64,000 nucleotides of DNA from Psilocybe cubensis (taxonomy: Eukaryota): the NCBI GenBank assembly GCA_017499595.2, contig CM039003.1:930001-994000 (forward strand), written 5' to 3'. The position numbers and the translations under genes were made by a program. Numbering within the stretch: position 1 is the first letter of the stretch; each line of letters starts with the position of its first letter. The notes under the pieces are model-generated. The model was not told the DNA's origin and did not search any database. It was given only the letters and a program-made list of their open reading frames with translations. Of this stretch, positions 22,975 to 46,189 are shown in pieces.

Positions 22975-25900
22975 GGATGCTCAAATCCTCTCGTTGGACA
23001 AGTTTTTTGGAGAAAGCTCCTTGCTCGGAATATCACGCAACGTCCACATCGGACTCTGCCGGAAGCCCAATTTCATTGTCATGTGACCCTGGAACCATAA
23101 TCCTCGCCTCTCGATTGGCCTGTTCGTCTCCTGAACGGTCACCTCGTCTCGACGTCGTTCATTTATGCGATGCTTTATACACCGACACTGTGCATTCAAC
23201 GCAGCACAAAACGCCTCACGATACTCTTTATCCGGGCTTCCTATCGTGCTTTCCGGATGATGCCGCCAGACATAGCATATGCTGAATAAAATGTCAACAT
23301 TTTGTCAATATTTTCTGGAAAACGTCGTTTCTCGTGATCCACTTTTGTAATATCTCATGTCCGGGCGCCCCATCCAAACTCATGTTGGTTATCTGATACT
23401 GAAAAACAACAGTCCCTAGCTGCGCTTATTGGTCTTTTTTCGGACCAATGCGCATACTCTGCCGACGTTACGCGTACGTGACATGTTAATGCAGACAACA
23501 CCTTCAGCACACGTCCTCACGCGTATGAACGAAGTCACTGTCTTACGACAGCTCATACGCGTAAGAGATATGGTAAGTAGATTCGGCATGCACAATCTCT
23601 AATTAATTGATGATCCTTTCCGTCTAAATATCTAAAGTGACACCATTACAGCCTACGGTTGTTTTGAATGCAGCATTTGGCTGCGGAAAGTACACCCAAA
23701 TTATGACTTGCCCTCTGATTTGGTTTCACTGGCAAATCATGATATGTGTCAATCTTTCCGCACTGCGGGCTATCCGACTTACCAGACTACACATTTTTCC
23801 ATAAGTACCCAAAAGCATACCCGAGTCGTCCTGTTCATTCTCGGTACTTTCTCTATCCCCATCTCATTGTTTCTCGCACCCACAATGTTAAAGCTTGACG
23901 CTGAATCCGAGAACAATGTCCAACATCAACAACATACTGTCGACCTTCATACGCTGCCTAATAATTCTGACCAATTGACAACAGTCGGTGGCGACTCCCA
24001 GAATACTTTAGATGTTGTGCAGACTCTTGGTCGACTTGCGAAAAGGTACTCTTACGACGCCTTCAAATTCTTGTCGCTAACAACGACCCCGTTTCTTGTC
24101 TTAGTCGCGAAGATGCTGGGATACTGCCTCGAGAGTTAGGCGTCTCGTTTCGCGGACTTGAAGTTATTGGCCTGGGTGCAGCATCGTCTTACCAGGACAC
24201 CGTCGGCTCCATATTCAACCCCTCCAACATGATCAAGCAAATACAAGCCCAACGCCATCCGTCAACACGCCACATAATTTCTGGTTTCGAGGGCACAGTA
24301 AAACCCGGCGAAATGCTGCGTCAGTACCTCCCACCTAACCAATATTTTAAATCTCTTACTCACACAAATCTATCACCAACAGTCGTCCTTGGCCGCCCCG
24401 GCTCAGGCTGTTCCACCCTACTTAAAATTCTCACTAACAAACACGACGAGTTCCACTCCACGAGCGGGGACATCCTCTACAACACCTTCCTTCCAGGCCA
24501 AATCTCCGCCCACTTCCGCGGGGACGTGCACTACTGCCCTGAGGACGACATCCACTTCCCCACACTGACCGTCGGGCAAACCGTAGAGTTCGCCGCGCGC
24601 GTGCGGGCACCTCGGGCCGCTGCGCGGATGGGCGAGAGCAGAGCTCAGTATGCGAAGCATACAGCGGATGTGCTGCTCAAGCTCTTTGGCTTGGAGCACG
24701 CGCGGAACACGCAGGTGGGCGACGCAACGATACGCGGCATCTCTGGTGGGGAGAAGAAAAGGCTGTCTATTTGTGAGGCGATGGCGGCGAGGTCGTGCCT
24801 AACGTCATGGGACAAGTAATGAATTTTCGACGTCTATATGTTATTTGCATGCTGAGACCACTTTGTTTAAAGCGCGACCAGGGGACTCGACTCGTCAACA
24901 GCACTGGAATTTGTTCAGATTCTGCGAGCGGCAACTGATATCAACCGACTAACAAGCATCGTGTCGCTTTACCAAGCCGGTGAGCGCTTATATGAATTGT
25001 TCGACAAGGTCCGCAAAATTCCCTCCAAAAGAATGCAGCGTCTTGACCATTTTTCTATATGTCCAGGTCTGCGTGGTCTACGAAGGTAGAATGGCCTACT
25101 TTGGCCCTGCCAACCAAGCCCGCGACTACTTCATCAACCTCGGATACGAGCCCGCGCACCGCCAAACAACCGCCGACTTCCTCGTCTCCGTGACCGACCC
25201 TAACGCGCGTATCCCGCGCTCAGACCTCGCCCTCCCCGCTCCACGCACCGCCGCAGAGTTCGCGTCCGCCTTCACCCGGTCTGACATCGGCCAAAAGAAC
25301 GCGCAGAGCGTGGACATCTTCCGCGCCGAGCTGCAAGCTGATAGGAAGGTATCGGAGGTGTATGTAAAAAGTGCTAGGGAAGAACATGATAAGTTGGCTA
25401 GAGCTGGCTCCTCGTATGTCGCATCGCTGCCAGCACAGGCAGCGGCAGTCATGCTCAGACGAATTCAGATACTTCGGGGGGCACTGGTGATATCTATCAT
25501 TAATATGGTGTACGTCTTCTCCGTTATCTATAAGCTATTTGCCTTCGCTCACACTGCAGGTTTACCCAGCGGATACATCTTCCAAGGAATAGTCCTCGGC
25601 ACAACCTTCCTCAAGGAACCAGCATCCACGAACTCATTCTTCTCGCGCTCTGGCATCCTCTTCTTGTAATTAATCTCACAAAAATGTTAAAACAAATGAA
25701 AAACTCACTACCAACCTACCCGCTATAGCTCTCTTTTTTTCTTCGCTTTGATGGCACTACCCGAGATCCCCGCTCTTTTTTCCCAACGGCCTATCATCCT
25801 ACGACACCAGCAAGCTGCGTTCTACCATCCATTCATAGACGCAGTTGCGTTGACACTCGTCGACGTTCCTGTAACATTTCTCAACTCGTTGATATTTGGA

Positions 25901-26544
25901 GGGATCATATATGGCCTCGTGGGGCTGGAGAAAACCGCTGGACAGCTTTTGTACGTCACATCCAATCTTCCTGGCTATCCATTGTCTTCTTTATGCTAAC
26001 GGGATTTGTGTATAGTATATATTTCTTGTTTGTGTTCACCACCGCCCTGGTGATGAGAGCGTACTTCCGTTCATTGGCTGCAATGTGCGCAAATAGACCA
26101 CCTTAAAGTGTAGTATAGTATACCTGACATACCACCAAGATACGTACCCTACATACCACCTAATTCAACAACCAACATCATATTTGTACTTTTCTCATAA
26201 GACACCGGTAAATGTGTATTCAAGTTAACCCATACCTACACCTACTATATATCATCAATCTACATCTGAAACCTCTAATCCAAAAACAGTATTCATTGGG
26301 TATAGAATGAGCGTTCAGCTCATTTGACATCTGACGGGTCAAAATTCAAAATAGATTTCTCACAAGACAGTGATCGTGAGAAAGGTCATGTGAGCGTCGG
26401 GACTTTGACATTTACATTTAGAAAGCTGCAATCAACTTGAACGCGAGGCTTGTATTGAGATGAATAAAACTTGAAACATTGTAGATTTCGCATCTGAGAT
26501 CTGAGAATGTGATTTATACATGCTAGAAAGGAGCGCGGAAATCC

Positions 26545-27530
26545 ACATTTGGAAGGCTGAAGGTTGCATGAATATACATCTAGAAATGTTATTTGATGCC
26601 TCTTGGTGTCGGAATCAAAATGACATCTGTGAGCAGTAAATTAACCACAATAACATCTGTGAATGAGGTTTAGTTTGCTGGAAGGGGCGTATAAATCAAC
26701 ATTTGGAAGGTTAAATCTTGCATAAATACAGATCTGGCAATGCTATTTGACGGTCCTCGGACTCGGAATTAAAACAGCATCTGGCAGGCTCAACATTGCA
26801 TGAATACACATCTGGAAATGTTATTTGATGCCTCTCGGAGCCGGAATCAAAATGACATCTGTGGCCAGTAAATTAACCACAATAACATCTGAGAATGAGG
26901 TATATGCTTGCTTGAAGCGGTGTGTAAATCAACATTTGGAAGGTTAAATCTTGCATAAATACACATCTGGCAATGTTATTTGATGGTCCTCGGACTCGGA
27001 ATTAAAACAGCATCTGGCAGGCTCAACATTGCATGAATACACATCTGGAAATATTATTTGATGCCTCTCGGAGCCGGAATCAAAATGACATCTGTGGCCA
27101 GTAAATTAACCACAATAACATCTGAGAATGAGGTATATGCTTGCTTGAAGCGGTGTGTAAATCAACATTTGGAAGGTTAAATCTTGCATAAATACACATC
27201 TGGCAATGTTATTTGACGGTCCTCGGACTCGGAATTAAAACAGCATCTGGAAGGCTCAACATTGCATGAATACACATCTGGAAATGTTATTTGATGCCTC
27301 TCGGAGCCGGAATCAAAATGACATCTGTGGACAGTAAATTAACCACAATAACATCTGAGAATGAGGTATATGCCTGCTTGAAGCGGTGTGTAAATCAACA
27401 TTTGGAAGGTTAAATCTTGCATAAATACACATCTGACAATGTTATTTGCTGTCCCTCGGATTCAGAATCAAAACGGCATTTGTAAGGTTAAATGGGCCAT
27501 GAATACACATCTTGCAATGTTATTTGACCC
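26545..27530. repeat. Subterminal tandem array, 233-bp unit, about 4 copies
   Basis: GGCTCAACATTGCATGAATACACATCTGG starts at 26787, 27020 and 27253 (period 233). Flanking copies are diverged. Each unit has several CATCTG/CATTTG motifs. Confidence 0.93.
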
Positions 27531-28084
27531 CCCTTGGAGACGGAAACAAAAAGAGATCTATGAGGCCATAAATCATGTTATATATAATCTGAGAATGCCT
27601 ATCAGATGCGCTCAACATTGCTGTGCCAAAATTAATTGTTAGACCTTGAACCAGCACAAACATCTGCAGAAAAAGAAAAAATTCAGTAGTGCTATGGTTG
27701 TATAATAGGCTGGGTAGTCTTGTTGACTGCCCCCCTATTTTATTGCTCCTGTAGCTTCCTACCAAAAGTCAGTAGATTCTGTAGATTTCTTAGTCATATA
27801 TGTAGCTTTTGTAGTCTTCTGTAATTTTAATAAATAGTATAATATTAATCTATAGGTACTACATTGCTAACTATATATTTTTATGCGCAATTTAATATTG
27901 AGTAAAAATCATTAATAGGACAGTTGATATCATTAATATCTTTATTAGCCATTCTACTCCGTCCAATTAGCTGACTTTGGATAGTAAGCCTCCATCCAGT
28001 CTAACAACATATTATACCTCTATCTAACTCTCTTCAACTTGTCTACTATCAGAATCTGTTAAGTAAATAACAACAGAAAAGATA

Positions 28085-28155
28085 TGGTTAGGACTAGAAT
28101 TGAACCAATGACTCCCAAGTATGTTGCCAATACTTTACCACTGAGCTATATGACC
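28085..28155 (-). pseudogene. Degenerate tRNA-like sequence
   Basis: Minus strand reads GGTCATATAGCTCAGTGGTAAAGT...ATTGGTTCAATTCTAGTCCTAACCA, with A-box TAGCTCAGTGG and B-box GGTTCAATTC at tRNA spacing. The T-stem pairs; the anticodon stem does not. Confidence 0.65.
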
Positions 28156-28339
28156 TATAAATAGATTGAGAGTTATATGTCAATATCCACTATTGAATCC
28201 ATTATTTGGACTCTGTGTTTGTTTGTTAACATTGACATTAGTATTGTTGTTATTCCACTTATTCTATTCCATCTAATTCCATATCATAAAATCCCATAAC
28301 TCAATTGACATTTATGCTATAGTCCATATTGTTTTGTAA

Positions 28340-28411
28340 AGTCTTATGGTCTACTGGTTAAGGACAGTCTATTTTTGGCTAAGGTTGACAGTTCAATCCT
28401 TGAGCAGGCCA
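28340..28411 (+). pseudogene. Degenerate tRNA-like sequence
   Basis: AGTCTTATGGTCTACTGGTTAAGGAC...GACAGTTCAATCCTTGAGCAGGCCA, with A-box TGGTCTACTGG, D-arm GTCT/GGAC and B-box AGTTCAATCC; 72 nt. Confidence 0.55.
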
Positions 28412-28739
28412 TTTATTTCGCTCGCAGACTACAAAGTCTATAAGTATATTGTAAGTACTACTGTATGTTGCATGGGCCTTGATTATATAGTTTCCATAAA
28501 TTACTGTATATTGTGAATACAATGTATTAAACCTATGTAATGAAAATATATTAGATAATGATGTTATGTAAGGCTACTAAGTGCAAAAAAGGCTACTGGA
28601 AAGTGTGGTTACTACGGTGTCTACTGTAATATAGGTGTGTACTACTGAAAAAAACCTTTTCCGCTGATGAATTTCCATTCGAAAGTTTGACTTGACAATG
28701 TAGGATATGATTTGCATACACTATCTGTACTCTACTGAG

Positions 28740-31700
28740 CTATGCAGTATCAATCTGCATAGTATCATTAACATCATCAATTCCATATGTAACAACCTTG
28801 ATGCCTTTTAATCTCGCCTTCAATTCTTCCCCAAGGCGAGTGAAAGAGACCATCATTAGATGTGTCTCACGTGAAAATTTCCCTCGTGGTCGGTGATCAT
28901 TGTAGATATCGCTTGCGGTCAGCATTGTTGCCGAAGTGAAAAGCTTGATCACAAATGCGCGGATGCGAGGCGGAAATACATCAGTCTTCATTGTTTCTTC
29001 AACGCTTTGAAGTTTGGGATTGGTTGATCGGATTGACAGTGTCTTCCAGAAGTAAAAGTCAAGGAGGACATTGTCTATAAGGCATCCACAATTCATGTGG
29101 CCTTCCTGAGGCGCAGCGCTATAGTCCGCACGGTAGGCCACTCCAGCTATATGGGTTTTGTTATCGCACTTCTTCACCATCGAGCTACGTTTGTGATAGC
29201 GGCACACTAGGTTGAGGTGAGAGGTCATGTGAATCCCAAGTGCAACTTGGCGGTGTGTAATGCACAGCTCAGGATGCATAAACTGAAGCATTCGTAACGC
29301 TTTACGATGCTTGACCTTCAGACTTGGGAGTTTTCCGGTTTCTAGGAACTCTTGAATAGAATTCTGAGCCCCATCTACTAAACTTTAGTGATCCATATAA
29401 GTAGAATAAAGCTGTAAAACAACGCACCACTAAGCGCCTGAAGCTCCGCACCAGTCATCCTAGTATACGCCTCCATTGCCTTTCTAAAATCACCAGCAAT
29501 TCCATCCTCTCCAAAAGCACCGGACAATGAATCTTCCCCCTCTGCCACCGAGGGAATTTGGGGGACTAGAACATCTGGAACAGATCCTGTTGGCTGATGT
29601 GCAGATTTCTCTGGCCTCTTTCGAGTGTTCAGCTGATCACGAATGGAAGACAACTCTTGCTCAATGGTACGTAGCTTTTCTTGAATATCTGCAAGATTTT
29701 GACTTGTCGCCGTCTTGAGAGAATTGGAAACAAGGGTCCTTTCCTTTCTCAAAACTTTCCGTCGATCCTCAAGGGGCTTGCGGTTCTGCTGCTCTCGATA
29801 CGCACGTTCATGCTGGATAATTGCAGCTTGAAGTTCGCCCATCCGTGCAGTTGCTTTCTGACAAATATCATGGTTTGAATCGATAGCTTGCAAAGCACCA
29901 CGTATCTCGTCCATGGTTCTTTGTTTTGGGCTGCATATATCAGCCTCTAGCTCAGCTGTCTTGCAGTTAACCGAAGCAAGGAACTGGGAAATTTGCTCAA
30001 GCTCTGCCGTAATCTGTTTCTGCAATGGTGGAAGCGACCCGGAAAGTGGGGGCGAGATAAGAGACATCATGGCTAAATCAAAGATTTTCTTAGCTTATAG
30101 TTATAATGAGAATTGTAAATGCGAACCAGTTTGATGTTCTCTGTTGTCTGAGACAGGTATAGCCTTTAAATCCCTCATCTGTATTCGGTAGTATCCATCA
30201 GATGATAGGTTACACTTCAAGTCTTTGGATTACATTACCTTCTTTGTCTTTCTTTCAGATATATTAAGCTCCTTGCTACCAGTTACAATTTTATCAAGGT
30301 CTTGTAAGTCAGTGTCTTTGAATAGTTCCATTGCCTCAATAAAAGAATAGTCAATATAAAGTTGGAACCGCTAGTGTGGAACTGAAATTACCTCCTTATT
30401 ATGGTCCTCTAACCGATTTGATTGGGTTTCAGCATCGTCAACTGAGGTCGTTGGCACGGTCTGGCAATGAGTAAGAGTTAGATTTAACATATAGATATAT
30501 AGATTTGTGCAAAATGGCGTTCGGGACTCCAGATTTCGCAGTGGCATCATATCACATTCTAGAATGTTAAATTGTCAAACACTGAGTATAACTCAGCACT
30601 AAACCCAGTGAGATGCGATTTGGCATCTCAAAATGGAGATTTGGTTATATCTCCTCAGAATCAAGACACGCAATTTGGCACTGCAGATGTAGAATCCCCA
30701 AAAACAATATGCACGTACCATAATTGCATCGTCATTTACGTTCCCAGTATTCTGCACCACACATAAGCCAATATTTGACTTTGCACCGGTGCATATCATA
30801 CCTTATCACTTGTAGTCTCTACTACGTTATGTTTCTGAGAGTTCCCATTGATCATCACATTTGAACATGGCGCTTCCTATCACGGAGAAGAGTTGTATTA
30901 GGTTCAAGTTCATGCAATTGAGAAATAAGATGATAAAACACACCATTGGGTTTGACGTGTCTGTGTCAATTTCCATCATCCGGGAACCGTGATCCGGTGC
31001 TGTACTGGTAGAATTATGAACACCAGAAGAAGGAAAAGCTGCTGCGCTGTCAGCAGGGGTGCTAATAGGTGAATTGGCAGCCGGAGATGACGTTGAAGAG
31101 GGCCTAGGATCCATGGAATCATTTGAAGATGTTTCACCAGTAGGAGCAAAATTCGGAGCGGATAATGTAGTAGAAAGGGTTTGAGCAGTAGAAATCGAAG
31201 TCGGCAATTCCACAGCAGGCAATTTGAGGGCAGAAATGGAGGCAGACAGGAGTGCAGAAACGGGTGAGCCAGAAGCAAGACTGGGATCAGGCAATGCCGC
31301 AGCAGCAAAGTGAGTGACAGGTGAATTCTGCAGTATTGGATCAATCATGTCTTGCTGATCCAGCACGATTGCATTGCCCAGGCTATCACCCTAACAAAAA
31401 CAATACGTAGATTAGTTTTTAGGTCTTTAAAATATCCAGTAACACACCTTTGTGGTGTTGAGAGCTGGAATCTCTTCCATTTGTACGTTAACTTGCTCTC
31501 GCTTCACTTTCTTTCCACGGGGACCGTCAAATCTTGTCTCATAGGTCTCTCGGAGCCTCTTAACCTTCTCTTGAGCATCATGCAAGCGCTCTTGATCCTG
31601 CGCCGACAGTCCCTTAGGTGGCGCTGCCTTGCGCAAAGGCTGTTTTTTGGACTTTGAGGGTAGCAAGGACTGCATTAGCTCCTCGCATTCCTTCTCTGCC

Positions 31701-31860
31701 GCAACTATAGACAATTTGGAAATCAAAACAGACATTATAAACTGCAAATATCTTACCTAGCTCGGCTCTCTGCACCTCCGCATCGAGGTAGGAGAAATCT
31801 GCATTGTATTAGACCAATATCATCGATAGCGCCCAATGACTTACCAAACTCTGTTTGCAT
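28740..31860 (-). CDS. Transposon cargo gene, hypothetical multi-exon protein (Ser/Pro-rich and coiled-coil regions, C-terminal HMNCGC motif); may be more than one gene
   Basis: ATG at 31860 (MQTEFDFSYLDAEVQRAEL) splices in frame into ORFs 31427-31747 and 30827-31366. Further same-strand ORFs lie at 29378-30070 and 28740-29291. The middle exons were not fully resolved. Confidence 0.55.
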
Positions 31861-32120
31861 TGTACGTTCAAACCTCCAAAAATGACAATATAAGATGTGG
31901 AATTGTTCAAGCGTCGTCAAATTCTACCAGGTCTGTATCAAACAATTTGAAAAGTCACTCAATGTACATTTCAAAATGTCATTTTATGCTGTGGTGTAGA
32001 AAATATAGCATTGAAGAATGTAAATTACATACCAACAGGATGTCGGCTCAGCCCATGTGAGATGTCTTGGAATGTGTAATTCCTAATTCCCAAACTGGAT
32101 GCACCAGTAAAGCACACATT

Positions 32121-32532
32121 CCAGTCCGTTTAGTCGCATCAGGCTGCGTTGACTCGCATCAGATCGCATCCCAATCTCATATATGGTCCAAGCGGAATTC
32201 ACACTTTCCAGTCCGTTTAGTCACATCAGGTTGCATTGAGTCGCATCAGGTCGGATTTGCATGAGGTTGCGTTGAATTGCATGAGGTCGTATCCCGATCT
32301 CATACATGGTCCAAGCGGAATTTCAGGTAGTTGAAGCGAAGGCCAGCCACCAAGTACAAGATTGGATAGCCCTTACCCACCGGGTCCGCTTTAACTTCCA
32401 CCTTGCATCTCTTCCCCCCTTTCCACCACGAGGTCATGTGGGTCAAGAATATATAGCCCTTACCCACCGCGTCTGCTTTAACTTCCATCTTGCATATCTT
32501 TCCCTCTTTCCACCGCAAGGCCATGTGGGTCA
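32121..32532. repeat. Two adjacent ~87-bp tandem duplications between divergent cargo genes
   Basis: CCAGTCCGTTTAGTC at 32121 and 32208; ATAGCCCTTACCCACCG at 32366 and 32453. Confidence 0.8.
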
Positions 32533-32553
32533 CCGTTTAGTTTTACTTAGGAG

Positions 32554-33439
32554 ATGTCTTCTCAAGGTAAGGTTCCTATCTCCTCAGTCTTTTTGTTACT
32601 GCTTACTTATTTCTATTGTCAGACTCTGATAAAGGTCAGCTCGTGTAGACCGTCTCACTATGAAGTATTGAACTGACAGCTTATGTATGTAGGTGTGCCT
32701 TGCATTGAATGTCAATGTAAGGACTGCCAGTGTCATTGTCATTGTTCTGGTGCAACTGGAGATGAGCTTCCACCACCCGATGAGAGGTGGTATAGCGTAG
32801 TAGTTGGACGGTCTCCTGGCGTTGTCCAGGGACAGTAAGTCTTCTGTTTAACTTCTTGATTCTGAATGCTTATCTTGACTCCAGGGACCATGCAGAGCGT
32901 AACTGGAGGGGTGTATCTGGAGGTGCTGCTTTTTACTGTCCAGATAGGCCTAGTGCAGAGCAGCATTTTGTCTCTGCCTTGCATCGTGGCGAAGCTGTTC
33001 ATGTCATTCCTGAGGTTCGGATTAGACTTGGTAGTCAAGACCGTGCCACGCTTCCCGGATTCCGTGTGCATGACCCTTGTAAGTTTTCTAATCTTTCTGC
33101 TTCATATTTTAAATTATTTACTCCTTCCAATTAGATAGTCCTGAGAACGCAACTTGGGTTGTTGTTTCAGTGGGGCGAGAGCCCGGGATCTACCTTATTG
33201 ACTCCAGGTGTGTTTCAATCACTCTTTGTTAGTCCCGGTTCTCAAATAATGTATACAGCTATTCTGGATATGGTCTTACCCTTACCTCCAACGTGAACGG
33301 GGTTAGTGGCGGCCATGTCATTAAATTTAAAAGCAGGTCTGCCGCCGTAGAGGAGTTTGAACGCATGTTGTCGGTGTCATTGATTGTCCGTGTTGTTACC
33401 GAAGTTAGAGCAGTACTTATGTCTGATGGTGTGGAGTAA
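32554..33439 (+). CDS. Transposon cargo gene: Cys/His-rich N-terminus plus two RNase H1 N-terminal (hybrid-binding / caulimovirus viroplasmin-like) domains
   Basis: Six exons splice in frame: MSSQDSDKGVPCIECQCKDCQCHCHC...RWYSVVVGRSPGVVQGQDHAERNWRGVSGGAAFYCPDRPSAEQHF...TWVVVSVGREPGIY...SNVNGVSGGHVIKFKSRSAAVEEF...GVE*. Confidence 0.72.
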
Positions 33440-34477
33440 ACTATACATTCCTATGTAGTATGGATTGAAAAATTACATTGCTTATGAGTCTGGAAATGTG
33501 TTAATCAACTGCGCTTTGATGTTTAAGAGTGAAGCTGCTTCAACGTCAAGCTTTGTGAAGGCATCGGCTGTTTCCACAAATCAGGTAGCGTGAGAATCTT
33601 GACTTAGTCTCACCTGTGTGTTCACGTTAACGCTTCAAATGCTTCATTGATTGCTCAATCGTTCAACACAGACGTAATTCATCATCCCGAATGAGTCTAC
33701 CCAGACATAAAGTAGGTTTTGGCTACCTGATTAAAGAAACCCATGGTCTATTTATCAGCCATTTGATGCACAGTACTATGACGAGAGATTTGGGAACTAG
33801 AAAAAGCAGATTGTGAAAAGTCGAGTTTCTGACTTGAATGAGCAATCATATCACTGTAGAAGATGTTCTTAGGTTTGTGTTTTCCAAGTCAAGATGGTAG
33901 TTTAGTCACGTTAATAGAAAAGACTTTGAAAAACTCGACCTGATATCACTGTGAACACTTTCTCTATATATCTAGTCTTGTCAGACAATGTGCACAATTG
34001 TATCACTGTATAAAATGACTTGACACTCATGTTCTCTGAGTCAAGATAGTGGTTTAGTAGCGTTGATAGAAAATTCTTTAAAAAACTTGACCCCATTCCA
34101 TTATGAACACTTTCTCTATACACCTAGGTCTATACAGCAGTTTCGTCAACAGTAACAATGTTGAAATAATGTGTCACATTACATAGCTGTCTACAATGTC
34201 TGTTACAAGAGACACAATCCAATATATGTGTATGTGATGTATATGATCTAGTACTAGTCATTTGTATCATAGGAGCTACAGAATTTCGTGTTTAGTACTG
34301 AATGACAAGTCGCATACACAACTGGCAGTCGCATATCTGATGTATCTGAGGTCGCATACGGTCGGGCCGCATACCAGGTCACATACACCGCATTTATTCG
34401 TGCTATCACCTCGCATTTATTCATACCATCACAATCTTACATTCAAGCTTACCTTTACAAACATTGTCCTTTTCTTA

Positions 34478-35236
34478 ATGGCCCCCCAAAAACATAGCAA
34501 TCAACGTGTTGGTGCCGATGGAAAAACAAAGCATCAAAGATATTTAGAAAAGTATAACGCTATTCTCACTGTCTTCAGTGCTTACTGACAAACTTTTAAA
34601 GGAATCGCTCGAAAATATATGCTAACAATGCTCGACGAAATCGTGAACGCCGTCAAAGACAGTAAGACTCTTAATTTGTACACTACACATGACACATACC
34701 TAAAGGCTCTTAGAAAGATGGAATCTGCTTGTACTCCCTCCCCTTCTTCAACTGTATCCCTTCCTGAAGTCCCTGCCGACGTCTCAGAAACTCGAAATGT
34801 CTGTATACAGACCCATATTTCCCTCATCCATTCGTCTTCAATGCATCGACCCCATCCTCGGATGCAAATTGCTCGTCTCAGCACACCAGAATTAGACAAT
34901 GAGGAGTTGATGCATTTCAAGAATCGCGAAAAGTCACTGGAACTGCTAAATCGCACTGTCGAGATACAACAAGAAATCACACTATGGGAGGAACTAATGA
35001 GCGACAAGTGGTCTTATTATTATGGTTGGATTATCAACTTTGATTTTAAGGGTACCACATACGAGCAAGTGACGAGCGAGGTGATGGAAAGAGTAAGCAA
35101 GTTGCTCCATGAGTGGTGTGCACTTGTGACAGACTCGGTCCCACAGGATTTCGATTACAAGACTGCAATCAAGCATATACAGGAGCTTACCATTGCCTTA
35201 AACTTCATGCAGAAGTTGAGCGACAATTCTGATTAG
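34478..35236 (+). CDS. Transposon cargo gene, hypothetical protein with a basic N-terminal helix
   Basis: MAPQKHSNQRVGADGKTKHQRYLEK splices to NRSKIYANNARRNRERRQRQ and then into the long ORF ending at 35236. Confidence 0.55.
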
Positions 35237-35587
35237 TATTGTAGCTATTTTTCAATCCAAAACTTGGCAGTCGTCTTGTCTCTATGTGCATAGCTTCTTC
35301 ATTTGAACTTGTCCATGTGGTATAGTGGATAAGCAAAACTTTGAGTTAATTTGCAATGCAAATCTCTTGGATCCAATTCTTAATGCCTCCATGTTTAGCT
35401 TAAAAGGGCAGCACATTCAATTGCTGTAGCCAGTATAATCAGCCATGGAAATGATTTGTAGCAATCCCATGTGCAACCAAGTTCTGTGTCAAACACTGAT
35501 CACAAAGACAGTATATATCTACACCAATGTATGTGTCCAGTCTCACGATAATCTACGTTTGGCTTATCTATTTCATTCATATAGACG

Positions 35588-36266
35588 GGATTATTCTATT
35601 CAGAAACCCCAGAAACCCTAGAAACCCCATAGAAACCCCCAAAATTCATAAAATCGTTATGAATGTTGTGGATGAAGGTGTGATGAATGTTCAGAATGCC
35701 GTTTCGGCGGATTAGGTAGGAGCTTGTATTCTCATGCGGGCCGTTTCAAGTGGCCACTCGGGTGCGTAGGTGCAACTTCGCTCAAAAATGGAAAAAGCAG
35801 TAAATTAACAAGTTAAAAGCCTAGAAACCTCTGTATAATGTAGCTCTTTGTACCTACCACCACTACTATACTCTCTAGTAATTTTCTTGTATCTTATAGT
35901 ACTCTGGATGCCCTACCTCGGTGTTCATAAACATCAAATATGATATCCCCTCGAATAAATAACCGTTAAACGACTCGAAAGTCCACTGAATGTGTTTGGT
36001 GAGTTTCATTGGCACTATGGCTTGCATTAGAAACGTTAGCGTAGAGGAATTTAACAATTGAATGTATTTACATGAAGACGATCAACTACTGATTCAAAAG
36101 CAATGACGACGGCACGACACGGCAGACCAGAAAAGCTAGGTCGGACCTTAGACCTCCCATACATGTTCAAGCAGGGGTTTAGAATGTTGCTTCGAGGACT
36201 ATTCAGAAACCCCTGGGGTTTCTGGGGGTTTCTAGGGGTTTCTGGGGTTTCTGAATAGAATAATCC
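35588..36266. mobile_element. Nested MITE, Mutator (MULE)-like, 679 bp
   Basis: Near-perfect ~42-bp TIRs GGATTATTCTATTCAGAAACCCCAGAAACCC..., flanked by a perfect 9-bp direct repeat ATATAGACG (35579-35587 and 36267-36275). Confidence 0.9.
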
Positions 36267-36646
36267 ATATAGACGCTTCAGGGACTTCCATTGATCTGGA
36301 GTCTGCGATCAATGACTGGTACCCCCGTCTTGGCCAATGAAAAACACTTGTTTCACTTGATACAGACACCGAGCATTCCCTTTTTTCGACTTGTCAAGGA
36401 ATCTTCAGGAATGGCAGAGAAAGTGACGCATTTTTGGACCCTTTTTAATCCACATGAGCCCCTTTGTGATCCAGATTTACACATTGTGTTACGACGGAAG
36501 GATGTTCCGGAGCAGGCTTGCATAGGGTTGGATCGTTTGACTACACTAGTTAAGCTCAAGGACAGCTGGGTGTTTTAGATATGTAGATAACTAGCAAAAC
36601 AACTATTTACGCCCACTAAAAGAGCTGACAAATATGTACACAATAT

Positions 36647-37914
36647 CTAGCTAGGGAGTAAACCATGAAGCTCCTGATACCGAGCCAACTGTTGAGAAAG
36701 CAAACGCTGGCTGTCACGCTCTGCTGCTATTGCATGCTCCATCTCCTCTGCGTGGCGACGAGATTCCTCTAACTGCTGCTGGAGATTAACATTGTCCTGG
36801 ATACGAGCTTGGATCAAATTCCGGGTGATGGAAGAAAATTGAGTCCCAATATTGCCGGCTTGAGCTGCTGCATCTCTTCGAAGACGCGGAGAAGCGTAGC
36901 TAATTGCGCCAGAGCGAGCAGTGGCATGTTGTGCTCCAATAAACAGCCAGCAACCGGTTTGTTTGGACAGGCCTTCACACTGGAAGCAGTATCAGTCATA
37001 TAATCCCACAAACAAGCTAAAACTGACCTTTTCAACGATTGCATTGATGGAATTTGTGAACTGCTTTACCAGTCGAGTGTTTTCGGATATGGGTGACGGC
37101 AAACTGTGGCCTCGAACAATTTCTATGGTAGATATTGGGTTGGTTAGAGTAGAGAGTAATAAAGGATTTTGGATGTTTAATACTCACGATATACCTCAGT
37201 CCCACGAAGTGCGCCCTGCACATATCCATGGTACGGATTCTGAGCACTTGTTCTAGGTGGCTTAGGGTGCGAAGGAGTAGTACGAGTTCGCAATGTTAAC
37301 TGGGCCAAACTACTTGAGGTCATTGATAAAATTGACGCAGTTTCCTGGAGCAACGACGAGCTTGTTGGGGTTCCGGGCGCGGAAATAGATGGAAACGTTG
37401 TGCTTGGTACCGTTGCAGAAGCACTGGAGGTAGGGTGATCTTCTGGACCTGTCAGTGGTGCAGAAATTTCAGGCCTCTCATCGTTTTCAGAAGCACTTGC
37501 AGAACCACGTTCCATCGCATCCACACTAGGTTCACGCAGACTCTATATTAGAGTAGACAATAATGTTCAATGTCAAAACCGGAGTTCATAGTATTCTCTT
37601 ACCTGTAAAGCCTGTTGTTCCGCAATATACTGCTGCCCCTTTTTGGTATGGATGCACTGCGACCGCAAAGGCCTTCCCGGACATCTTTTACACCTAGCAT
37701 CCTGACGTGAAGCCTTGAAAAATGTGCTTCAGATGACACGTCATAACACAGCATTGAATGCAGACGACATACAGTGATAATGGGCCCCTTTTTAGTACCT
37801 CCATTGCGTTTCTAAAGATCTGTAAGACACTGAAAATTCTGGATAGTAACTTCTCACCTTGTGTGGTGTAGACTCTACCAGTGTAGAGGCCTTTGCCGCC
37901 CGCTGTTTTGCCAT
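36647..37914 (-). CDS. Transposon cargo gene, hypothetical protein with a CxxC-x8-CxH motif and C-terminal coiled coil
   Basis: ATG at 37914 (MAKQRAAKAS); one exon encodes ARCKRCPGRPLRSQCIHTKKG; Ser/Thr-rich ORF 37177-37524; last exon QQQLEESRRHAEEMEHAIAAERDSQRLLSQQLARYQELHGLLPS*. Confidence 0.55.
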
Positions 37915-38714
37915 TAATGTGGGTGGTAGGACAAGAGGAACAACTTGAAATTTGAAGACGCTACTGGAAATGTATATACATTCACACATTGATGAGTAAT
38001 ATCCTATCTTAATGGTCCATTTTACATCAACAGATGTCAAATTGAATTAGGCTAATATACATTGTACCCAGATACAAAGAGTAATTATCATCTAGAAATA
38101 TAAATCCTATGTAGAATGGCAAAACAAGGCTTGACATCGAGCAATGCAATGATTGATTAAGTCAGTTTGACATTTCTAAGTCCAATTCCCACAGCTCCCA
38201 CGGCCTTGTGACCGTCGGAGTTTTAACAAATGACTGATAAAATGACTACCAATTCTCATTTGTTTAGGCTGTTTATGGCTTTACTAACAATTTCTCCAAT
38301 ATATAAATGATTAATACAATACATATATCACTTTTTCAAAGGTGCACAGTACCTTGGGCAGTTTGTGCGCCGTTTTCAGTCACATCAGGGTACGAGGTAG
38401 GGGTGTCACATTTATGTGACCCGCGAGTCACAAAGGTCAACTTTTGACAATGTTTGCAGTCTGCACACCGGGGCATAAGCTGCTAAGGTATGAAAGGTGC
38501 ATGGTTCAATAGTGTATGGTACTTGGTATGATTTTGTGTAAAAAATCAATGTCACAGCCAAATGATTATAAAGTAATATCTACCTGTATGATTAAACAAA
38601 GTTATCTTGGCGTGGTATACTGGTATTTAACAAACCTAGCACTAATGGCTCTGTTATGTACACGTGTATTCTTTCTTCGCAACACATCTCTTGATTCACT
38701 TTGTGCATGCTCCA

Positions 38715-41700
38715 ATGAGCAGAACTCCTTCTCCAGTAATAGTCTATGCACCATTGCCGGAATCTCCCACACAGATAGACTATACTCCATTGCCAGACAT
38801 CCAGGGCTACGATATTAGCACTCCCCAGTGCAAAAGGAGAGTTGCTAAAGGAGCACGTCAAGGCAACACCAAAAAAAAAAGGCATGGCAATTTGAGCAAT
38901 GCTTCAATTGAGGATCTCTTGGATGACAATGAGCCATCTGATATGGCTATGATGGATGTTGAGCAAGGACCTGGTGAATCTGAAGCCAACATGAATGATG
39001 ATTCCGAGGATTTTCTGCAATTTGCTGAGGCAGTAGTGGCAGAAGAATGCCCTATCTTTCAGTTAACCGAGCGGATGTTTGTTGTGAGTGGCTGGAATGC
39101 AGCCAAAAGAGAGTCAAATGTGAGTATTATGTGAATATATTTGAAGAACTGGCTGACATCATTGTATTCAGAAATTCTGGTACCACGCTATGCGGGATAA
39201 TACCCAGGACACAGTTTCAGTTGTTTGTCTGTGTCCACTTAACCGGTTGCAAGCATGTTATCATGTGAGGTACCTGACCGAAGAACTTCCGCACAATGCG
39301 ACAGTAAACGAAGTATCTCTATCTGGTACGTGTGGCAGTGACCTTCATAGATTTGTAGTAAACTAATAATTGTGTATTTCAGCCTATCAAGAGGCACGAG
39401 CATTTCTTTTCTACAGAAACGAAGGTGTCATGGATAACTTTTATACCAATATTTTTTCAATCCCAACTTCCACACGATTTCCAACCATTAAGAATCGTAG
39501 CATTGTTGAGCATTATGGAGACGACTCTGGTAATGGGACATGGAAATGTAGCAGGGATCAAGGCGCAACATCATGCTCCCACATTGTACAAGCCCGTCAC
39601 GCACTGCAGAAGTATATTCATGGAGACTGGAATGCACAAGATGAAACCATTGATAGTAGTGTAGCTACAGATGGTGTTCAATTTGGTGGTACGCTTGTAT
39701 TTGAATGGTTCAAGTCCAGAGTATTTCTAACTAATGAAGTAGGAGTTCCATTACGACAGGTTTCTGGAGTTGCTGAATCAATTTCGTATAAGCGAATTCC
39801 ACCTCCCTGTTGGTCCCAAATTGGGGCAGACCCTCCTGCACCACCCAGAGTTATTTTCAACTCACCGCCATCATCTATTTCTCTAGGTGACAATGGCACA
39901 TGTATCTGCTCCAACCCTAGGGAATGTTTTGACCCATTTAGGCCGTCAATCGACAAAGAGTGTACTGTTTATACACTTACCGGTGCTTCTAAGGCAGTAA
40001 TCTCACTGCAACAATGTCTAAAATGCTCACACCGTTTTATTGGGCCAGAATGCAGTGATCTGGGTTTATTCAATTTCAATAACACCAGCCTCTTTGCCCA
40101 TGATCTGTTGGACGACTACACAAGTGCATTTTCCACCTCGGAAACTCCATTTATATCCTGGGTTAACACTGTGTCACGGCGCTATCAACTTCGTGGGTCT
40201 GACGTCCCCTTTGCAAGCGACAAGCTCTTTCGTGCTGCTTGGTTCTCCTATTCACGGCTATTGCTATTAGAAAATGACATGACCTGTTTAGAATGTGGCC
40301 CAAATCCCAAGGCAACAATATGGGATGGAGTAACTGTAGCATTCAGTCGTCAAATGCTTCTACCTTCGCTTCATCCACCAACGTTAACAGGTCCCTCTTC
40401 AATTGAGAGGCCAGAGGTTCATCCCACATCTAATCTGCACGCTATTCCAAACCGAAATATTCGTATACTTATCCGATTCATTCTCAAGGGCCCACCACTC
40501 ACTACACTGTCAACCGAAGCAGAGGTCACAGAGGCTAGTCCACATTTTGAGAGAAACAAGAAAATTGTAGAACGCCTATCAAAAGTCTCGGAACTAGTCA
40601 ACAAGCTTTCCAATATTAACACACATCTAGGTAATCTGTTTAATAGTCAGTTTGGACTCTCCGCTGTTTTCAGAAAGCAATCCATCCCTGAAGTTTACAT
40701 TAAATTCTTTCTCCAGGTATTTTTTTTTTATTCTGCATAATTTTCACACCAGTACTCATGTCCTACAGGTCGCTGCGGATGAGTCAATCCTACAAGCCTT
40801 ACCATATCCTTCAATCTTGAGCCTGAGGCGATTTCTACGAGATCCTAGTGCACAGCATATTACCTGGTTGCGATATACACCTTTCATTCAACGTGTCATC
40901 CAACATGAAGTGCGCTTCGGGAATATTTCAGCAGATACCTTAGCAGTATGTGAGTGGCTCTACGTGCGGGCTATGGCTGTGTTTAGCATCATCAAAGTGC
41001 ATGATGGACCGGCCAAAAATGATGACACTGTCAATTCAAATATTGAGCAGGAAGATTGGCTTAAGGTACGTATATAGTACTCAATCATATCTTCATGTGG
41101 TGTGGTATACTTATGCCATAATAGACAGGCTGCCACTATGCAATGGCACAGATCCGTGAACGGCCAAAATATCCCAACCTCCCATATGAAGCCGGAAATG
41201 ATCTTGTTGGCGCCAATGAAGATGAGGACACTTGTCATAAGTACTATTCAACATATTCCAAGAAGCGCCTCACCGGTGGAATCATGTGTGTCTGGTGCAC
41301 ACACAGTGTTTGCTACGGTTTCCATTGCATCCGCGCAGCCGAAGGCCGCAATGATGTATTTTCAGCAATATACACACGGTGGAAACAGGCTCCGGAGGTC
41401 ATCGTCTACGATTTTGCTTGCGCACTTCAACCCTACTGCATGTCACGCGAGCCAGACTTCTTCAAAAACACGCGTTTTGTGATCGACATTTTTCATTCCA
41501 GTGAACACAAATGTGGGGAGGCCTGTTTCTTGGCCACATACTGCCAGGAAAACCCAGACCTTCTACGATTGAACTCAAGTGCAGCGGAATGTGGCAACAG
41601 TGGTATTTCCAAGATCAGGAAAGGGGTTAGTTACATGACTCAAGACCGTGCTGTCATGTATATGAAGGTTTTTTTTTCATTATGGAATCGACAGCAGATC

Positions 41701-41733
41701 AGAAAAATGGAAAGGACTGGGATTAGGAACTAA
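38715..41733 (+). CDS. KDZ-type transposase (SWIM-like fingers, CxC cysteine cluster, DDE core; HMGXB3/CxC4-like)
   Basis: CLCPLNRLQACYH and CSRDQGATSCSH fingers; CLKC..FIGPECSDLGLFNFNN cluster; CLECGPNPKATIWDGVT (D1); LTGGIMCVWCTHSVCYGFH; EGRNDVF; VIVYDFAC (D2); IDIFHSSEHKC (DxxH); NSSAAECGNS (E). No stop seen in the exons. Confidence 0.85.
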
Positions 41734-44700
41734 TGTACTGTCTTTACATATTTAAATGTGCATGGAAATTTGTACATGAGTCGTAATTTCTCATTTGTAG
41801 GCGTCAATTTATGATCAACAAGGATATTCCACTGGCATTGGTTAAAACCTGTAATTACTGACCCCAAGGATGTAGATTGTACAGTGTTTACCAAAGTGTT
41901 GATTTGGCCTCGAGAGATGAAGATCTGTGCCAATTTCTCACATGCATACCGGGCAATCCAGCATTCAAAGTATGAGCATTCAAAACACATCTGTAAATAC
42001 GAATTCTTAGTTATTTGAAACGGTGCTGCAGATATAGACTCACAGTATGTAGATTGTGGTACATTCTCATAGTGTGAATTTAGCATTCAGAGATGAAGAT
42101 CCGTGCAAAATTTTTGCGCACAGATACAATCCAGTTTGCAAGGTACGAGTATCCAAATCACATCTGCAAATCCAAACTGTGTGCTATTCAACACATCTGC
42201 GGCTCTAAATGCAATATACATGCCAGGATGTCAATTCAAAGAGTCTCACAGGGTTGGCATTGCTGTAGTTGGAACGCTCAAAATACATTTGGTGATGTCG
42301 ATTATAATTGCTGGACAATCAACATTAATTAAACACATTCTGAGACGCTGGCCGCTCAGAGAGGAGATTTCTATGCAGGGGAGCCATTTAGCCCACATGT
42401 TGGGTAGCGATTACTATGGGATGTCGGGTACATTATATCTACTTTTACATATAGTCGTTAACCCGCAATGTGTGCGTTTGAGCGTAAGTGACATCTTTGG
42501 TTCAAAATCCACATGTAACACGGTCCTTATTCATATGACTAGCCACGGCTCAAATGCTTGCTGGGCTGAGCGTTCTCGCTATGTGCCTGTGCACAGGTAA
42601 GAGTTCCGAATCTGCTTTGCCTACCGCGAGATCAGTCCGCCAATATCACCCATCTTGACAGGGTATGTTATCCCAGAAGAGTCCATGATCTGGGCACTCC
42701 GCTGGATGACTTTCATCAACGTACGTTTATCCTTTATATATCCATGCCCTACCAATTCCAAACCCTCATAACAACAATTTATTGCAGCCTTTCAAATACG
42801 GCTTCGAAAGCCTCATGGCGAACGAGTTCAAAGACCTCAACGGGACGTGCGCCAGCATCATCCCTCACGGACCCACATACACGAATATAAGCATTGCGAA
42901 CCAGGTCTGCGCCGTTGTCGGCGCTATACCCGGTGAGACGCACGTCCAAGGGGCACGGTTTATCAAGCTGTCACTTGGGTATACTTACAGCCATCTATGG
43001 AGGGTGAGTCGATGTTGTCCCGTGAACTTGTTTTATGTATGTTCCTTTGGTTGACTTGTGGTTGTCGTATAGAACTTTGGGATAGTCATTGCATTTGGCC
43101 TGGCGTTCCTTGCCGCCCTTTTCATTTTCACCGAAATCAATACCAAATTCACTGGAGTAGCGACGATGATTTTATACAAACAAGGCGGAAATTCAGAGGA
43201 TGAGTCCAAACAACATGATTCCGATAGTGTCGAGATGATGATCATCGAAGACAAGGTATCAAAAGGCATAAAAGACAATGTGGTATCATCTGTATCTGGG
43301 TCAAGTATCGCTGAAGAGTATAGAAAGGACACCAGAGAATCCAGCGATGGGATATTCTCTTTCACTGGTGTGTCGTATACTATCCAAGCCGATGGAAAGG
43401 ATCGCAAGCTCCTGCAAGATATTTCTGGATACATCTCGCCAGGCTCTCTTACAGCGTTGATGGGAGAATCAGGTGCTGGGAAGGTGAGTCTTCCGATCGG
43501 CTTGAACTCGCACTGAATAAATATATTAAACGACGTTCTAGACTACTTTGTTGAATGTCCTTGCCAATAGGGTGGATGTCGGCGTCGTATCCGGTGATCG
43601 ATTCATAGGCAGGGAAAGCTTTACCAGAGGATTTTCAATCACAGACGTGAGTGTTCTAACCCAGCATGCAATGATATCACTTGACCGATTGCTAACTTAT
43701 CGTGGCTAGCGGTTACTGTCAACAAATCGACACACATTTACCGACGTCTACCGTTCGCGAAGCTTTGCTTTTCTCTGCCAGGCTGCGTCAACCATCTAGT
43801 GTATCAGATAGAGAGAAAGCGGAATAGTAAGTCGTGATTCAGGCATAGCTAGTTGGATTATATGCTTATAAATACAGTGTCGACAAATGTCTTCACATGT
43901 GTGGTTTATGGAATTACAGGGACGCCATTGTTGGAACTCTCGGTGTCGAGCTTCGGAAGCGAACCACAGTCGGGGTCGAGTTAGCTGCCAAGGTGCGTGG
44001 AACACCTGGCCAAAAATGGATTTCGATTTTTCATCGAATAAAACTTTCGTTAGCCTAAGTTCCTTTTATTCCTGGACGAACCTACGTCGGGTTTGGATTC
44101 TCAAACTGCATGGAGCATTGTCACGTTTCTACGGAGTTTGGCTGATCAAGGCCAGGCAATTCTGTGCACGATTCATCAGGTGAGGATCCCAGTCTTCAAA
44201 TTTTCTTTCGCATTCTGACCTATAGCACTAGCCTTCCGCTGAGCTTTTCCACGTAAGATTTCTGCATTCCCTGCATCCAATATCCTAACCAAATTGACAA
44301 TTCCAGGTCTTTGACAAATTACTCTTGCTCAAGAAAGGAGGACAGACTGTGTACTTCGGCGATCTCGGACATAATGCTACCACTCTCCTAGCTTATTTTG
44401 AGCAAAATGGTGCACGTCCTTGTGGAACTGATGAAAACCCGTAAGTTCTCATTTCATCTGGAGACTTATGCAGGTGAATTGAAAGCATGTTTTAGCGCCG
44501 AATATATGCTTGATGTTATTGGTGCTGGCGCTACTGCCTCAAGCGACATCGACTGGTATGACGTATGGAAAAAGTCCATCGAGAAACAGGCACTCGACCA
44601 GAAACTCCAACGCATACACTCCGAGGGAATTCGTGCACCCATAAACACAACAACTCTAGTGTCCGAATATCCAACGTCCTGGTCAAACCAGTTCTTTGAA

Positions 44701-46189
44701 CTGTTCAAGCGAGGCGCCTCTGATCATTATCGCAATGTGGAATACCTCATGGCCAAAATATCTCTCAACATAATTGCTGGGTTGTTTCTAGGGTTCACCT
44801 TCTTCAAAAAGCAGAGCAGCATACAGGGAACACAGAACAGGATCTTCGTACGTTCTAATCAGGCATCCAGTTTTACTGTATACTGACGTTGTCACGTTCA
44901 GGCGCTACATATGGCATTAATTATTGGGTACGTCGCTTTGGACGGTACTCTACCACGCTGACTCACTCGTTCTTAGCATACCATTGTCGAATCAGATTCA
45001 GGTACCTTACATCGCAACTCGCCAGGTCTATGAAATCAGAGAACGTCCCAGCAGAATGTACAGCTGGACAGCTCTCCTGACATCCCAAATCATCGTGGAG
45101 ATGCTCTAGAACTTCCTAGGCTCCTCACTGTTCTTCTTCGTCTGGTACTGGACCTCTCATTTCCCAACGCATGGGGCGGGGTACGGCTACCTCGCCATGG
45201 GAATCGTGTTTCCGGCGTACTACACAACCATTGCACAGAGCATTGCGAGCATGGCACCGAATGTCGAAATCGCCCAGCTTCTGTTTGGGTTCCTGTTTTC
45301 CTTTGTTTTGGCATAGTAAGCTGGTCGTCTCAAACAGGGATTTAAAAATTTGTTAACCATTGTATTCGCAGCAATGGTGTTATACAACCATACTCCCATC
45401 TTGGGTGGTGGAAATGGATGTAAGCGGTATTTTCTTATCAGTCGGCAGGCGGTTCTGAATCAAAGTTCTTTTTAAAGGTACAGGCTTTCTCCGTACAAAT
45501 ATATCCTAGAAGGTTTAGCTGGCCAAGGTATACTAGTCAAGCCAATATGAGGCCTATTAGCGCATACTCACCCAATACACTAGGTATAGGTCACCAAGAA
45601 GTCGCATGCTCGCCCATCGAGTTTGTCTCCCTTAATCCACCAGCCAACCAAACGTGCTCCCAATACCTATCCGACTTTATAACTTCCTCAGGCGGCTACC
45701 TCCAAAATCCAGACGCCCTAGAAAACTGTAGCTTCTGCCCCTTGAAAACAACCGATGAATTTCTCGGCCCTACTCTCAACATCTTTTACGACAATAGGTG
45801 GCAAAATATTGGCATCATGATTGCATTCATCATCTTCAATGTACGTCATTCCAGTCTCCTTACAGAAGCAGATATTGATGCGCGGACGTGTACAGATATT
45901 CACTATCTTTTTGTTCACGTACTTGTTCCGCATTCATAAAGGCAGCCTTTTGCCATGGTCGCGGAAGAACAATTAATCTATTGTAATGACCTTTCATCCC
46001 TCCGTATATCGCGGAATACTACCACTTAGTCTTCGTACAACAACGACATATAATTAATTCGTCTATCTTATACTACTCGTGACTCCACCTCTAAATAGAT
46101 GGTTTCCTTGATATTATATTATAAAGTTGATCGAGTCAGGGCCTTCTTCACTTTTGTTTGTGAGATCACGATCTTCAACGACTTCCAAC

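Follow-up and report, generated by a model that had tools for sequence, protein, structure and literature searches.

What is the 16,377-bp insert that interrupts a gene for a PDR-type ABC transporter in Psilocybe cubensis, how did it come to lie there, and do the genes inside it belong to it? The insert lies in a stretch of 64,000 nucleotides (contig CM039003.1 of assembly GCA_017499595.2, positions 930,001 to 994,000 of the forward strand), which we call the window and whose positions are used throughout. A first-pass annotation of the window had read it as a precisely bounded 16.4-kb KDZ transposon with cargo genes. We conclude, with a probability of roughly 90%, that it is a KDZ-superfamily DNA transposon, with Zisupton as the most likely branch. 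It represents an apparently young, polymorphic KDZ/Zisupton-like family in an Agaricales mushroom, and this family has moved recently. The new biology here is a conserved three-gene module combined with repeat-rich ends that lack terminal inverted repeats (TIRs).

The inserted element occupies positions 26088..42464 of the plus strand and has the termini 5'-CGCAAATAG...GTTAACCC-3'. It is bordered by a target-site duplication (TSD), two direct copies of GCAATGTG on the plus strand, of which the left (26080..26087) lies in an exon of the host ABC gene and the right at 42465..42472; the empty site has a single copy. The bases beside the two copies differ on both sides (t and c before, c and t after) and the duplication is therefore exactly 8 bp long, as had been annotated. 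By itself GCAATGTG is uninformative: the window has three occurrences where 3.4 are expected, and 63 of 100 shuffles have three or more. Removal of 26088-42472 by script produced an open exon ending in ...RSLAAMCAFE followed by a GTAAGT splice donor. When this deletion product was aligned over 513 nucleotides with an ABC paralogue on the minus strand, there was no gap at the junction and both introns flanking it were at matching places, so that the restored frame and intron of the first-pass annotation were both recovered. The paralogue, at about 11.3-16.2 kb, was recovered when the window was compared with itself, and its identity to 24.5-25.2 kb and 43.9-45.8 kb is 71-82%.

The interrupted 5' part of the host gene (23636..26087, plus strand) contains the Pfam domains ABC_trans_N and ABC_tran, and the 3' part (42473..45846, plus strand) contains PDR_CDR, a second ABC_tran and ABC2_membrane; the coordinate 23636 is not a mapped start and 45846 is not a mapped end. 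These domains on either side of the insert identify the host gene as a full-size PDR-type transporter, with the insert lying within the first membrane domain. The allele of this transporter in the sequenced P. cubensis strain is knocked out, and the gene is intact in other strains. The two PDR-type paralogues, with 71-82% identity in exon DNA, stand head to head about 7 kb apart, and only one of them holds the transposon.

Sequencing runs were searched with a 10-kb query, 4 kb of which came from the element and 6 kb from its flank. The share of sampled words was 0.98-0.99 in four runs, any of which is a possible source, 0.63 in two runs of another study, 0.24-0.29 in three runs (X7-X9) and 0.02 in X10; two raw-read runs were added to the run set, and X7-X10 contribute nothing to the results. 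We compared runs X1, X5, X6 and X11 with the window over 25000-43500, and all results on sites, copies and age come from these four. The element was present in each of them. The empty site, which the first-pass annotation had proposed to look for in other strains, was found in exact form in X5, X6 and X11. It consists of a joint from 26079 to 42465 that skips 16,385 bases and has 8-9 letters common to both sides, and it was carried by one 6,918-bp contig of X5, one 32,473-bp contig of X6 and 26 raw reads of X11 with 20 start places. In X1 we observed no empty-site joint, and contigs cross each filled junction by 28-29 bases.

Copies at other sites had also been suggested as a check. In contigs of X5 and X6 base 26088 is joined to two different foreign flanks, and in X1 a third foreign flank is joined at 26086, where the two-base overlap with the TSD may be due to chance. 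The left boundary recurs on new flanks, and the right boundary appears as the point, 42464/42465, where contigs of X1, X5 and X6 end. Read depth over the element was about twice that of the flank in X1 (about 20 and 10) and about 0.6 of the flank in X6 and X11, which would agree with one or two element copies per genome. In one public assembly there are two annotated copies, that of the window (JR316_0006807-0006810, encoding proteins of 788, 198, 329 and 913-914 amino acids) and another on a different contig (JR316_0010217-0010221).

Could the locus instead be an assembly artefact, or an insertion made without transposition at a chance microhomology of 8 bp? The GCAATGTG octamer is not rare in the window, and X1, with its short junction crossings, may be the sample that was assembled. 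Against this, a unit of 14.7 kb (the element without two later inserts described below) was seen in three runs with three flanks that differ from those here, GCAATGTG stands just once in the empty allele, and the public annotation places its two copies on different contigs. We consider this explanation extremely improbable and return to the transposon.

The element copies and their flanks differ from the window to very different degrees. X1 differs at 13 of 13,540 element positions (0.10%) and at 0 of 2,181 flank positions, X5 at 27 of 14,024 (0.19%) and 62 of 1,919 (3.2%), and X6 at 85 of 13,994 (0.61%) and 73 of 2,116 (3.4%). Element copies across strains and sites are far more alike than the host alleles, suggesting recent movement. 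The family had been called fairly recent from the perfect TSD and the intact transposase, and this holds: three runs have empty sites, three have the element at other sites, and copies are 99.4-99.9% alike where the flanks are 3.2-3.4% apart. With an exact left end, a gene content that is described end to end, filled and empty alleles and a second copy, the activity of this family can easily be tested.

We then ask what kind of transposon this is. The transposase gene (38715..41733, plus strand) is spliced and encodes a protein of 913 amino acids with a SWIM-like C-x-C...C-x-H motif, a CxC4 cluster and a KDZ catalytic domain. A Pfam scan of the element covered 26 open reading frames (ORFs) of at least 82 amino acids at E<=0.01, and two of them had matches, one to CxC4 and one to KDZ. 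The CxC4 match (PF18717) had an E value of 1.6e-43 and 148 bits, and this cluster is present in 25 of 25 relatives, which bears out the CxC4 type originally assigned. KDZ (PF18758) was matched by the last exon alone with 30.2 bits (E 4.6e-7, cut-off 26.6) over positions 51-217 of the 217 in the profile. The first-pass annotation had also labelled the type HMGXB3-like. Some relatives bear the source name 'SWIM-type domain-containing' and others 'HMG domain-containing protein'; the HMG Pfam family had no match in the transposase or in its 25 relatives. Comparison of the transposase with PDB sequences gave no match.

The best database relative of the transposase is a 913-amino-acid P. cubensis protein whose exons are identical to those at 38715-41733. 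In an alignment of 24 relatives (35-56% identical) and the second copy, the window's transposase has the majority residue in each of the 161 columns with conservation of 90% or more. Invariant residues are C154-x-C156...C164-x-H166, D482 and E866, and conservation reaches at least 90% at D807 and D832. The first-pass annotation had called the transposase apparently intact, and we agree, as the gene is unbroken, its exons are those of the annotated protein and no conserved column has been lost.

The features that place the element in the KDZ superfamily are the KDZ domain, a CxC-type cluster N-terminal to the catalytic domain and a discrete unit that makes a TSD. Within the superfamily, the combination of CxC4, SWIM and KDZ is called the canonical make-up of Zisupton (PMC11343200), and 8-bp TSDs are described for Zisupton and Dileera (PMC12730594). 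Of the Zisupton features, we found the 8-bp TSD, at one insertion, and we found no TIRs. It is unlikely, in our estimate, that the element belongs to the Kyakuja or the Dileera branch. The TSD length is shared with Dileera (PMC12730594, PMC11343200) and ends without TIRs are described for Kyakuja (PMC12730594). However, complete Kyakuja elements are described with a 7-bp TSD and 5'-CA..TG-3' termini (PMC12730594), whereas the TSD here is 8 bp and the termini are CGC...CCC. Similarly, the Dileera elements KDZ1-3 of Cryptococcus are described with CxC1 and TIRs of 139-241 bp (PMC11343200, PMC12810828), whereas here the cluster is CxC4, in all 25 relatives, and there are no long TIRs. Assignment to Zisupton is therefore preferred.

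Two kinds of gene known from other large fungal elements were looked for. No Pfam match to TET/JBP was found in the 26 ORFs (E<=0.01) or in the annotated accessory proteins (E<=10), a search that very distant TET-like proteins would escape. The tyrosine-recombinase 'captain' of Starship elements had no match in the 26 ORFs, and the KDZ transposase is the sole enzyme that was found.

The other genes of the element had been annotated as four spliced cargo genes. The public annotation has three in the window's copy and four in the second copy. Accessory gene 1 (JR316_0006807, identical; 28740..31814, minus strand) encodes a protein of 788 amino acids with a coiled-coil middle and a C-terminal Cys/His domain, C-x2-H...C-G-C...W-K. 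Accessory gene 2, or ORF-d (JR316_0006809; 36647..37914, minus strand), is divergent from the transposase gene and encodes a protein of 329 amino acids comprised of an invariant N-terminal C-x2-C-x8-C-x-H knuckle, a disordered linker rich in S, T and P, a conserved core and a C-terminal coiled coil. Between them lies an orphan ORF of 198/202 amino acids (JR316_0006808; 34628..35236, plus strand) that is annotated in both copies. The additional gene of the second copy, JR316_0010218, lies between the genes for the 788- and 198-amino-acid proteins; the matching stretch of the window (31815-34600) contains just short ORFs and an 87-bp tandem repeat (32366-32532).

A search with a minus-strand ORF upstream of the transposase recovered the 329-amino-acid protein and four paralogues or orthologues. 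The last exon of the 788-amino-acid gene matched the 788-amino-acid P. cubensis protein and a 605-amino-acid Galerina protein with 41% identity. In P. cubensis the gene for the 329-amino-acid protein adjoins a transposase gene in six of six pairs (JR316_0006809/10, 0010220/21, 0007405/06, 0008750/49, 0012771/72 and 0006700/699), which make up three families with transposases that are 55-57% identical. The same arrangement was found in Galerina, where KDR72063 (329-amino-acid type) adjoins KDR72062 (transposase) and KDR72068 is the relative of the 788-amino-acid protein. We also scanned metagenome contigs and obtained 68 loci with related transposases. Eighteen of these reach 2.5 kb or more upstream from the start of the transposase and are informative for the 329-amino-acid gene; a relative was present in all 18, upstream on the opposite strand in 17 and downstream in one. 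The C-terminal domain of the 788-amino-acid protein was found in five of the seven loci that reach 8 kb or more upstream and in another three; its relative place and its strand are unchanged in seven loci, and in one it is on the other strand. A second gene order occurs in this lineage: at L013, L018 and L023 a 329-amino-acid-type gene follows the transposase, with which it shares the strand.

A different reading of these genes is that they are passengers captured from the host, as in Starship-like carriers, with no role in the element. The three extra proteins match no Pfam family, the annotation gives the second copy an additional gene, and the 198-amino-acid ORF, which has no relatives, could be captured or spurious: in a search of 1.84 billion representatives its sole real match was itself, and it was found in none of the 68 related loci. 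Contrary to this reading, the 329-amino-acid gene accompanies the transposase gene in Galerina, in three diverged families of P. cubensis and in every informative metagenome locus, and the 788-amino-acid C-terminal domain recurs at a largely constant place. Such linkage, kept at 25-45% protein identity, would be expected for genes of the element and not for recent passengers. We thus regard the passenger explanation as distinctly unlikely and the label of cargo as mistaken for both genes. As far as their sequences tell, the 329- and 788-amino-acid proteins are companions of related transposases across genera. Two proteins of no known family are in this way constant with a transposase lineage across genera and uncultured fungi, and the published KDZ work, in the parts cited here, mentions extra ORFs without tracing them.

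Structural comparison gave few hints about these proteins. The profile of the 329-amino-acid protein had one match among PDB sequences, with an E value of 0.9, which we disregarded, and its predicted structure had a mean predicted local distance difference test score (pLDDT) of 53.6 and a predicted template modelling score (pTM) of 0.24. A basidiomycete protein cluster resembles it with a score of 0.87, which is a lead only. The model of the 788-amino-acid C-terminal domain (pLDDT 61.4, pTM 0.63) was compared with the PDB using Foldseek; among 47 matches at E<=10 there were 0 at E<=0.001, and the best had an E value of 1.7, with template modelling scores of at most 0.2. The lack of a fold match for this domain leaves no hint of its function.

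The window's copy has a history of its own. A non-autonomous element of 1,009 bp (27661..28669) with the ends CATCTG...CTGATG and a 2-bp TSD, AA at 27659-60 and 28670-71, is nested in it, and this nested element has a high copy number. The element copies of X5, X6 and X11, as well as contig ends of X1, lack the 1,011 bp from 27659 to 28669 (joint from 27658 to 28670). A second insert, also of high copy number, is a miniature inverted-repeat transposable element (MITE) of about 678 bp with a 9-10-bp TSD, CATATAGAC(G), at 35578..36265, with the repeat extending to about 36275. Its 53-bp TIRs (35588-35639 and 36266-36215) are 94% identical, and the 688 bp from 35578 to 36265 are skipped in the same three runs and in contig ends of X1 (joint from 35577 to 36266). 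Read depth at the nested inserts was 5- to 25-fold above that of single-copy DNA, and at the 1,009-bp element it was 50-680 compared with 10-42 in its flanks. The contigs of X1 break exactly at the points of the nested inserts, which would agree with one copy that has the inserts and one that lacks them. The two later MITE insertions total 1,699 bp and the native element is therefore 16,377 - 1,011 - 688 = 14,678 bp long. The outer bounds implied by the first-pass annotation, 26088 and 42464, hold, and its length of 16.4 kb includes two later arrivals.

Both inserts resemble known types. The termini of the 1,009-bp element are near the ends of PlavakaB, CATCA..TGATG (PMC12730594), and it looks like a member of an active Plavaka-type MITE family of P. 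cubensis. The MITE of about 678 bp has TIRs of GGGGTTTCT-like units, which together with its 9-10-bp TSD are a Mutator-like signature. Elsewhere, near the start of the window, a 49-bp inverted repeat with 94% identity (115-163 and 4300-4348) encloses about 4.1 kb.

At nine sites (29072, 29159, 30496, 32084, 34802, 35335, 36336, 38829 and 39248) the window has T or A where C or G stands in all four runs or in all but one. These C>T/G>A changes are found in the window's copy alone, and seven of the nine are at an ancestral CpG, a pattern of the kind left by deamination of methylated cytosine and limited to this copy. Two of the transitions cause the transposase changes R39C and S161L; R491Q is a third derived change, and the 788-amino-acid protein has four derived substitutions relative to the second copy. 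With two MITEs and nine transitions, the window's copy is the most altered of the copies seen.

Is this copy, then, a dead relic that looks intact by chance, with only other copies being active? We find this quite plausible, at a little below even odds. The nested MITEs and the CpG-biased transitions, both confined to the window's copy, speak for it, as do the three transposase substitutions, two of them at conserved basic positions, and the four in the 788-amino-acid protein. On the other hand, there is no stop or frameshift in any of the three conserved genes, the transposase keeps 161 of 161 conserved columns, and both ends are as in other copies, so that the copy could still move in trans. 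In view of its MITEs and its transitions, this copy is probably silenced by methylation and decaying. The suggestion of a possibly mobile family agrees with the recent movement of the family; the window's copy is more mutated than the others.

How might the transposase recognize the element? No true TIRs were found, and the outermost 21 nucleotides of the two ends are unmatched. There is an imperfect subterminal inverted repeat that matches at 21 of 26 positions, with its left arm at 26110..26134 (plus strand) and its right arm at 42417..42442 (minus strand), each 22 nucleotides from the end. Its score of 25 was reached by 2 of 1,000 shuffles when ends of 60 nucleotides were used and by 21 of 1,000 when ends of 300 nucleotides were used. 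A comparison of the ends for shared inverted k-mers gave none that were convincing. The left end contains a subterminal tandem array (26546..27559, plus strand) of a 233-bp unit repeated 4.4 times, with a sub-period of 78 bp, that is rich in the motif ACATCTG. This motif occurs 21 times on the plus strand and twice on the minus strand of the element, and once on the plus and three times on the minus strand in the 47.6 kb outside it. Seventeen of the plus-strand copies are in the first 1.6 kb or so (one of them in the nested MITE) and three in the last 480 bp, in direct orientation.

Ends of related families may be visible in the metagenome loci. The likeness between near-identical related elements in different metagenome contigs ends at one base, with different flanks beyond it, at L001:7899, L002:4368 and L004:14667, at L006:13044 and L007:4372, and at L050:12583 and L060:2983. 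These breakpoints are 250-1,640 bp past the transposase gene and are probably the right ends of sister families. One of them, ...CTGCCCCC, is C-rich like the ...AACCC end of the Psilocybe element.

The transposase would be a DDE-type enzyme with an RNase-H fold that excises the element and pastes it into target cuts staggered by 8 bp. Since true TIRs are lacking, the ends are probably recognized through subterminal sequence, and the candidates are the 26-bp imperfect inverted repeat, the direct-orientation ACATCTG clusters at both ends, or both. The zinc modules of the transposase might read these subterminal repeats, or the 329-amino-acid zinc-knuckle/coiled-coil protein might do so as a cofactor. 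Going further, and with considerable doubt, we offer the tentative idea that this is an obligate three-protein transposon in which the 329- and 788-amino-acid proteins would serve as cofactors of transposition or against silencing, and in which the ends would be read through asymmetric ACATCTG arrays rather than TIRs. If true, such recognition of the ends would be new among the fungal DDE cut-and-paste elements described to date.

Several observations weigh against the interpretation given here. The KDZ Pfam match is marginal: it is absent for the full-length protein at E<=1, and only 14 of the 25 relatives have one at E<=0.1. The profile check proposed by the first-pass annotation thus succeeded for CxC4 and for KDZ on the last exon, but failed for KDZ on the full-length protein. 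The Pfam SWIM family was below threshold, with a match in one of 25 relatives (E 0.019) and none on the exon alone. The 8-bp TSD comes from one insertion and its empty site, movement is deduced from polymorphism among strains, and the choice of Zisupton over Dileera would follow from domain make-up and TSD length as given in published descriptions. R39C and R491Q are the changes that hit conserved basic positions of the window's transposase. Most of the ACATCTG copies are in one tandem array and are not independent, and some metagenome loci are near-duplicates; L001 and L004, which are 99.7% alike, were counted as one. Independently of this, domain-based censuses of KDZ elements probably undercount the lineage of the transposase at 38715-41733, whose full-length protein would escape them.

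Among known systems, the most general parallel is with two-component transposons such as PIF/Harbinger, with its Myb-like ORF1, and CACTA, with TnpA and TnpD. As in these, a conserved second (here also a third) gene appears to stand beside the transposase together with subterminal repeats, a resemblance that would be one of function only. By contrast, the transposase superfamilies are unrelated, TSDs and termini differ, and the accessory proteins had no similarity in sequence or fold to known proteins in Pfam and the PDB.

Closer parallels are found within the KDZ superfamily. The first-pass annotation had assumed that fungal KDZ elements are mostly defined by protein domains. This is no longer so, as several papers describe KDZ elements of fungi whose ends are exact and whose TSDs are 8 bp (PMC11343200, PMC12730594, PMC12810828), and the Psilocybe element opens no new class. 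The Zisupton of fish belongs to the same superfamily (Bohne et al. 2012, as cited in PMC12730594). Kojima (2025) collected fungal Zisupton, Kyakuja and Dileera families for their TET/JBP dioxygenase genes (PMC12730594). The Psilocybe element is like these Repbase families in its superfamily, its 8-bp TSD (Zisupton, Dileera), its lack of TIRs (Kyakuja) and the multi-gene content seen in Agaricomycetes, and unlike these carriers of TET/JBP it has no TET/JBP match. Psilocybe is absent from the text of that paper, supplementary tables aside, which may list related families, and among the papers listed by our literature search none dealt with Psilocybe together with KDZ, Zisupton or Kyakuja.

The elements KDZ1-3 of Cryptococcus neoformans are 9-11 kb long, belong to the Dileera clade and have extra ORFs in addition to CxC1 and long TIRs (PMC11343200, PMC12810828). 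Their TSDs are given as 8 bp, or as 4-8 bp for KDZ2 and KDZ3 (PMC11343200, PMC12810828). Movement was seen for KDZ1, KDZ2 and KDZx1 (PMC11343200), and that of KDZ3 was first observed in later work, which also confirmed the TSDs and TIRs of KDZ1-3 (PMC12810828). Like KDZ1, KDZ2 and KDZ3, the Psilocybe element is large, has extra ORFs without known domains, makes an 8-bp TSD, has a low copy number and disrupts a gene; unlike them, it has CxC4 and no long TIRs. A close match is KDZx1 of Cryptococcus deneoformans, an element of 6.4 kb with KDZ, CxC4 and SWIM, an 8-bp TSD, no TIR and a second ORF, that was seen to transpose (Huang et al. 2024, PMC11343200). KDZx1 has two ORFs, and its jumps were seen in the laboratory. 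The Psilocybe element is longer, at 14.7 kb, and contains three conserved genes as well as an orphan ORF and a subterminal tandem array; that it moves is deduced from polymorphism among strains. Both have a transposase with KDZ and CxC4, an 8-bp TSD, no TIRs and a further ORF beside the transposase, and both insert into genes.

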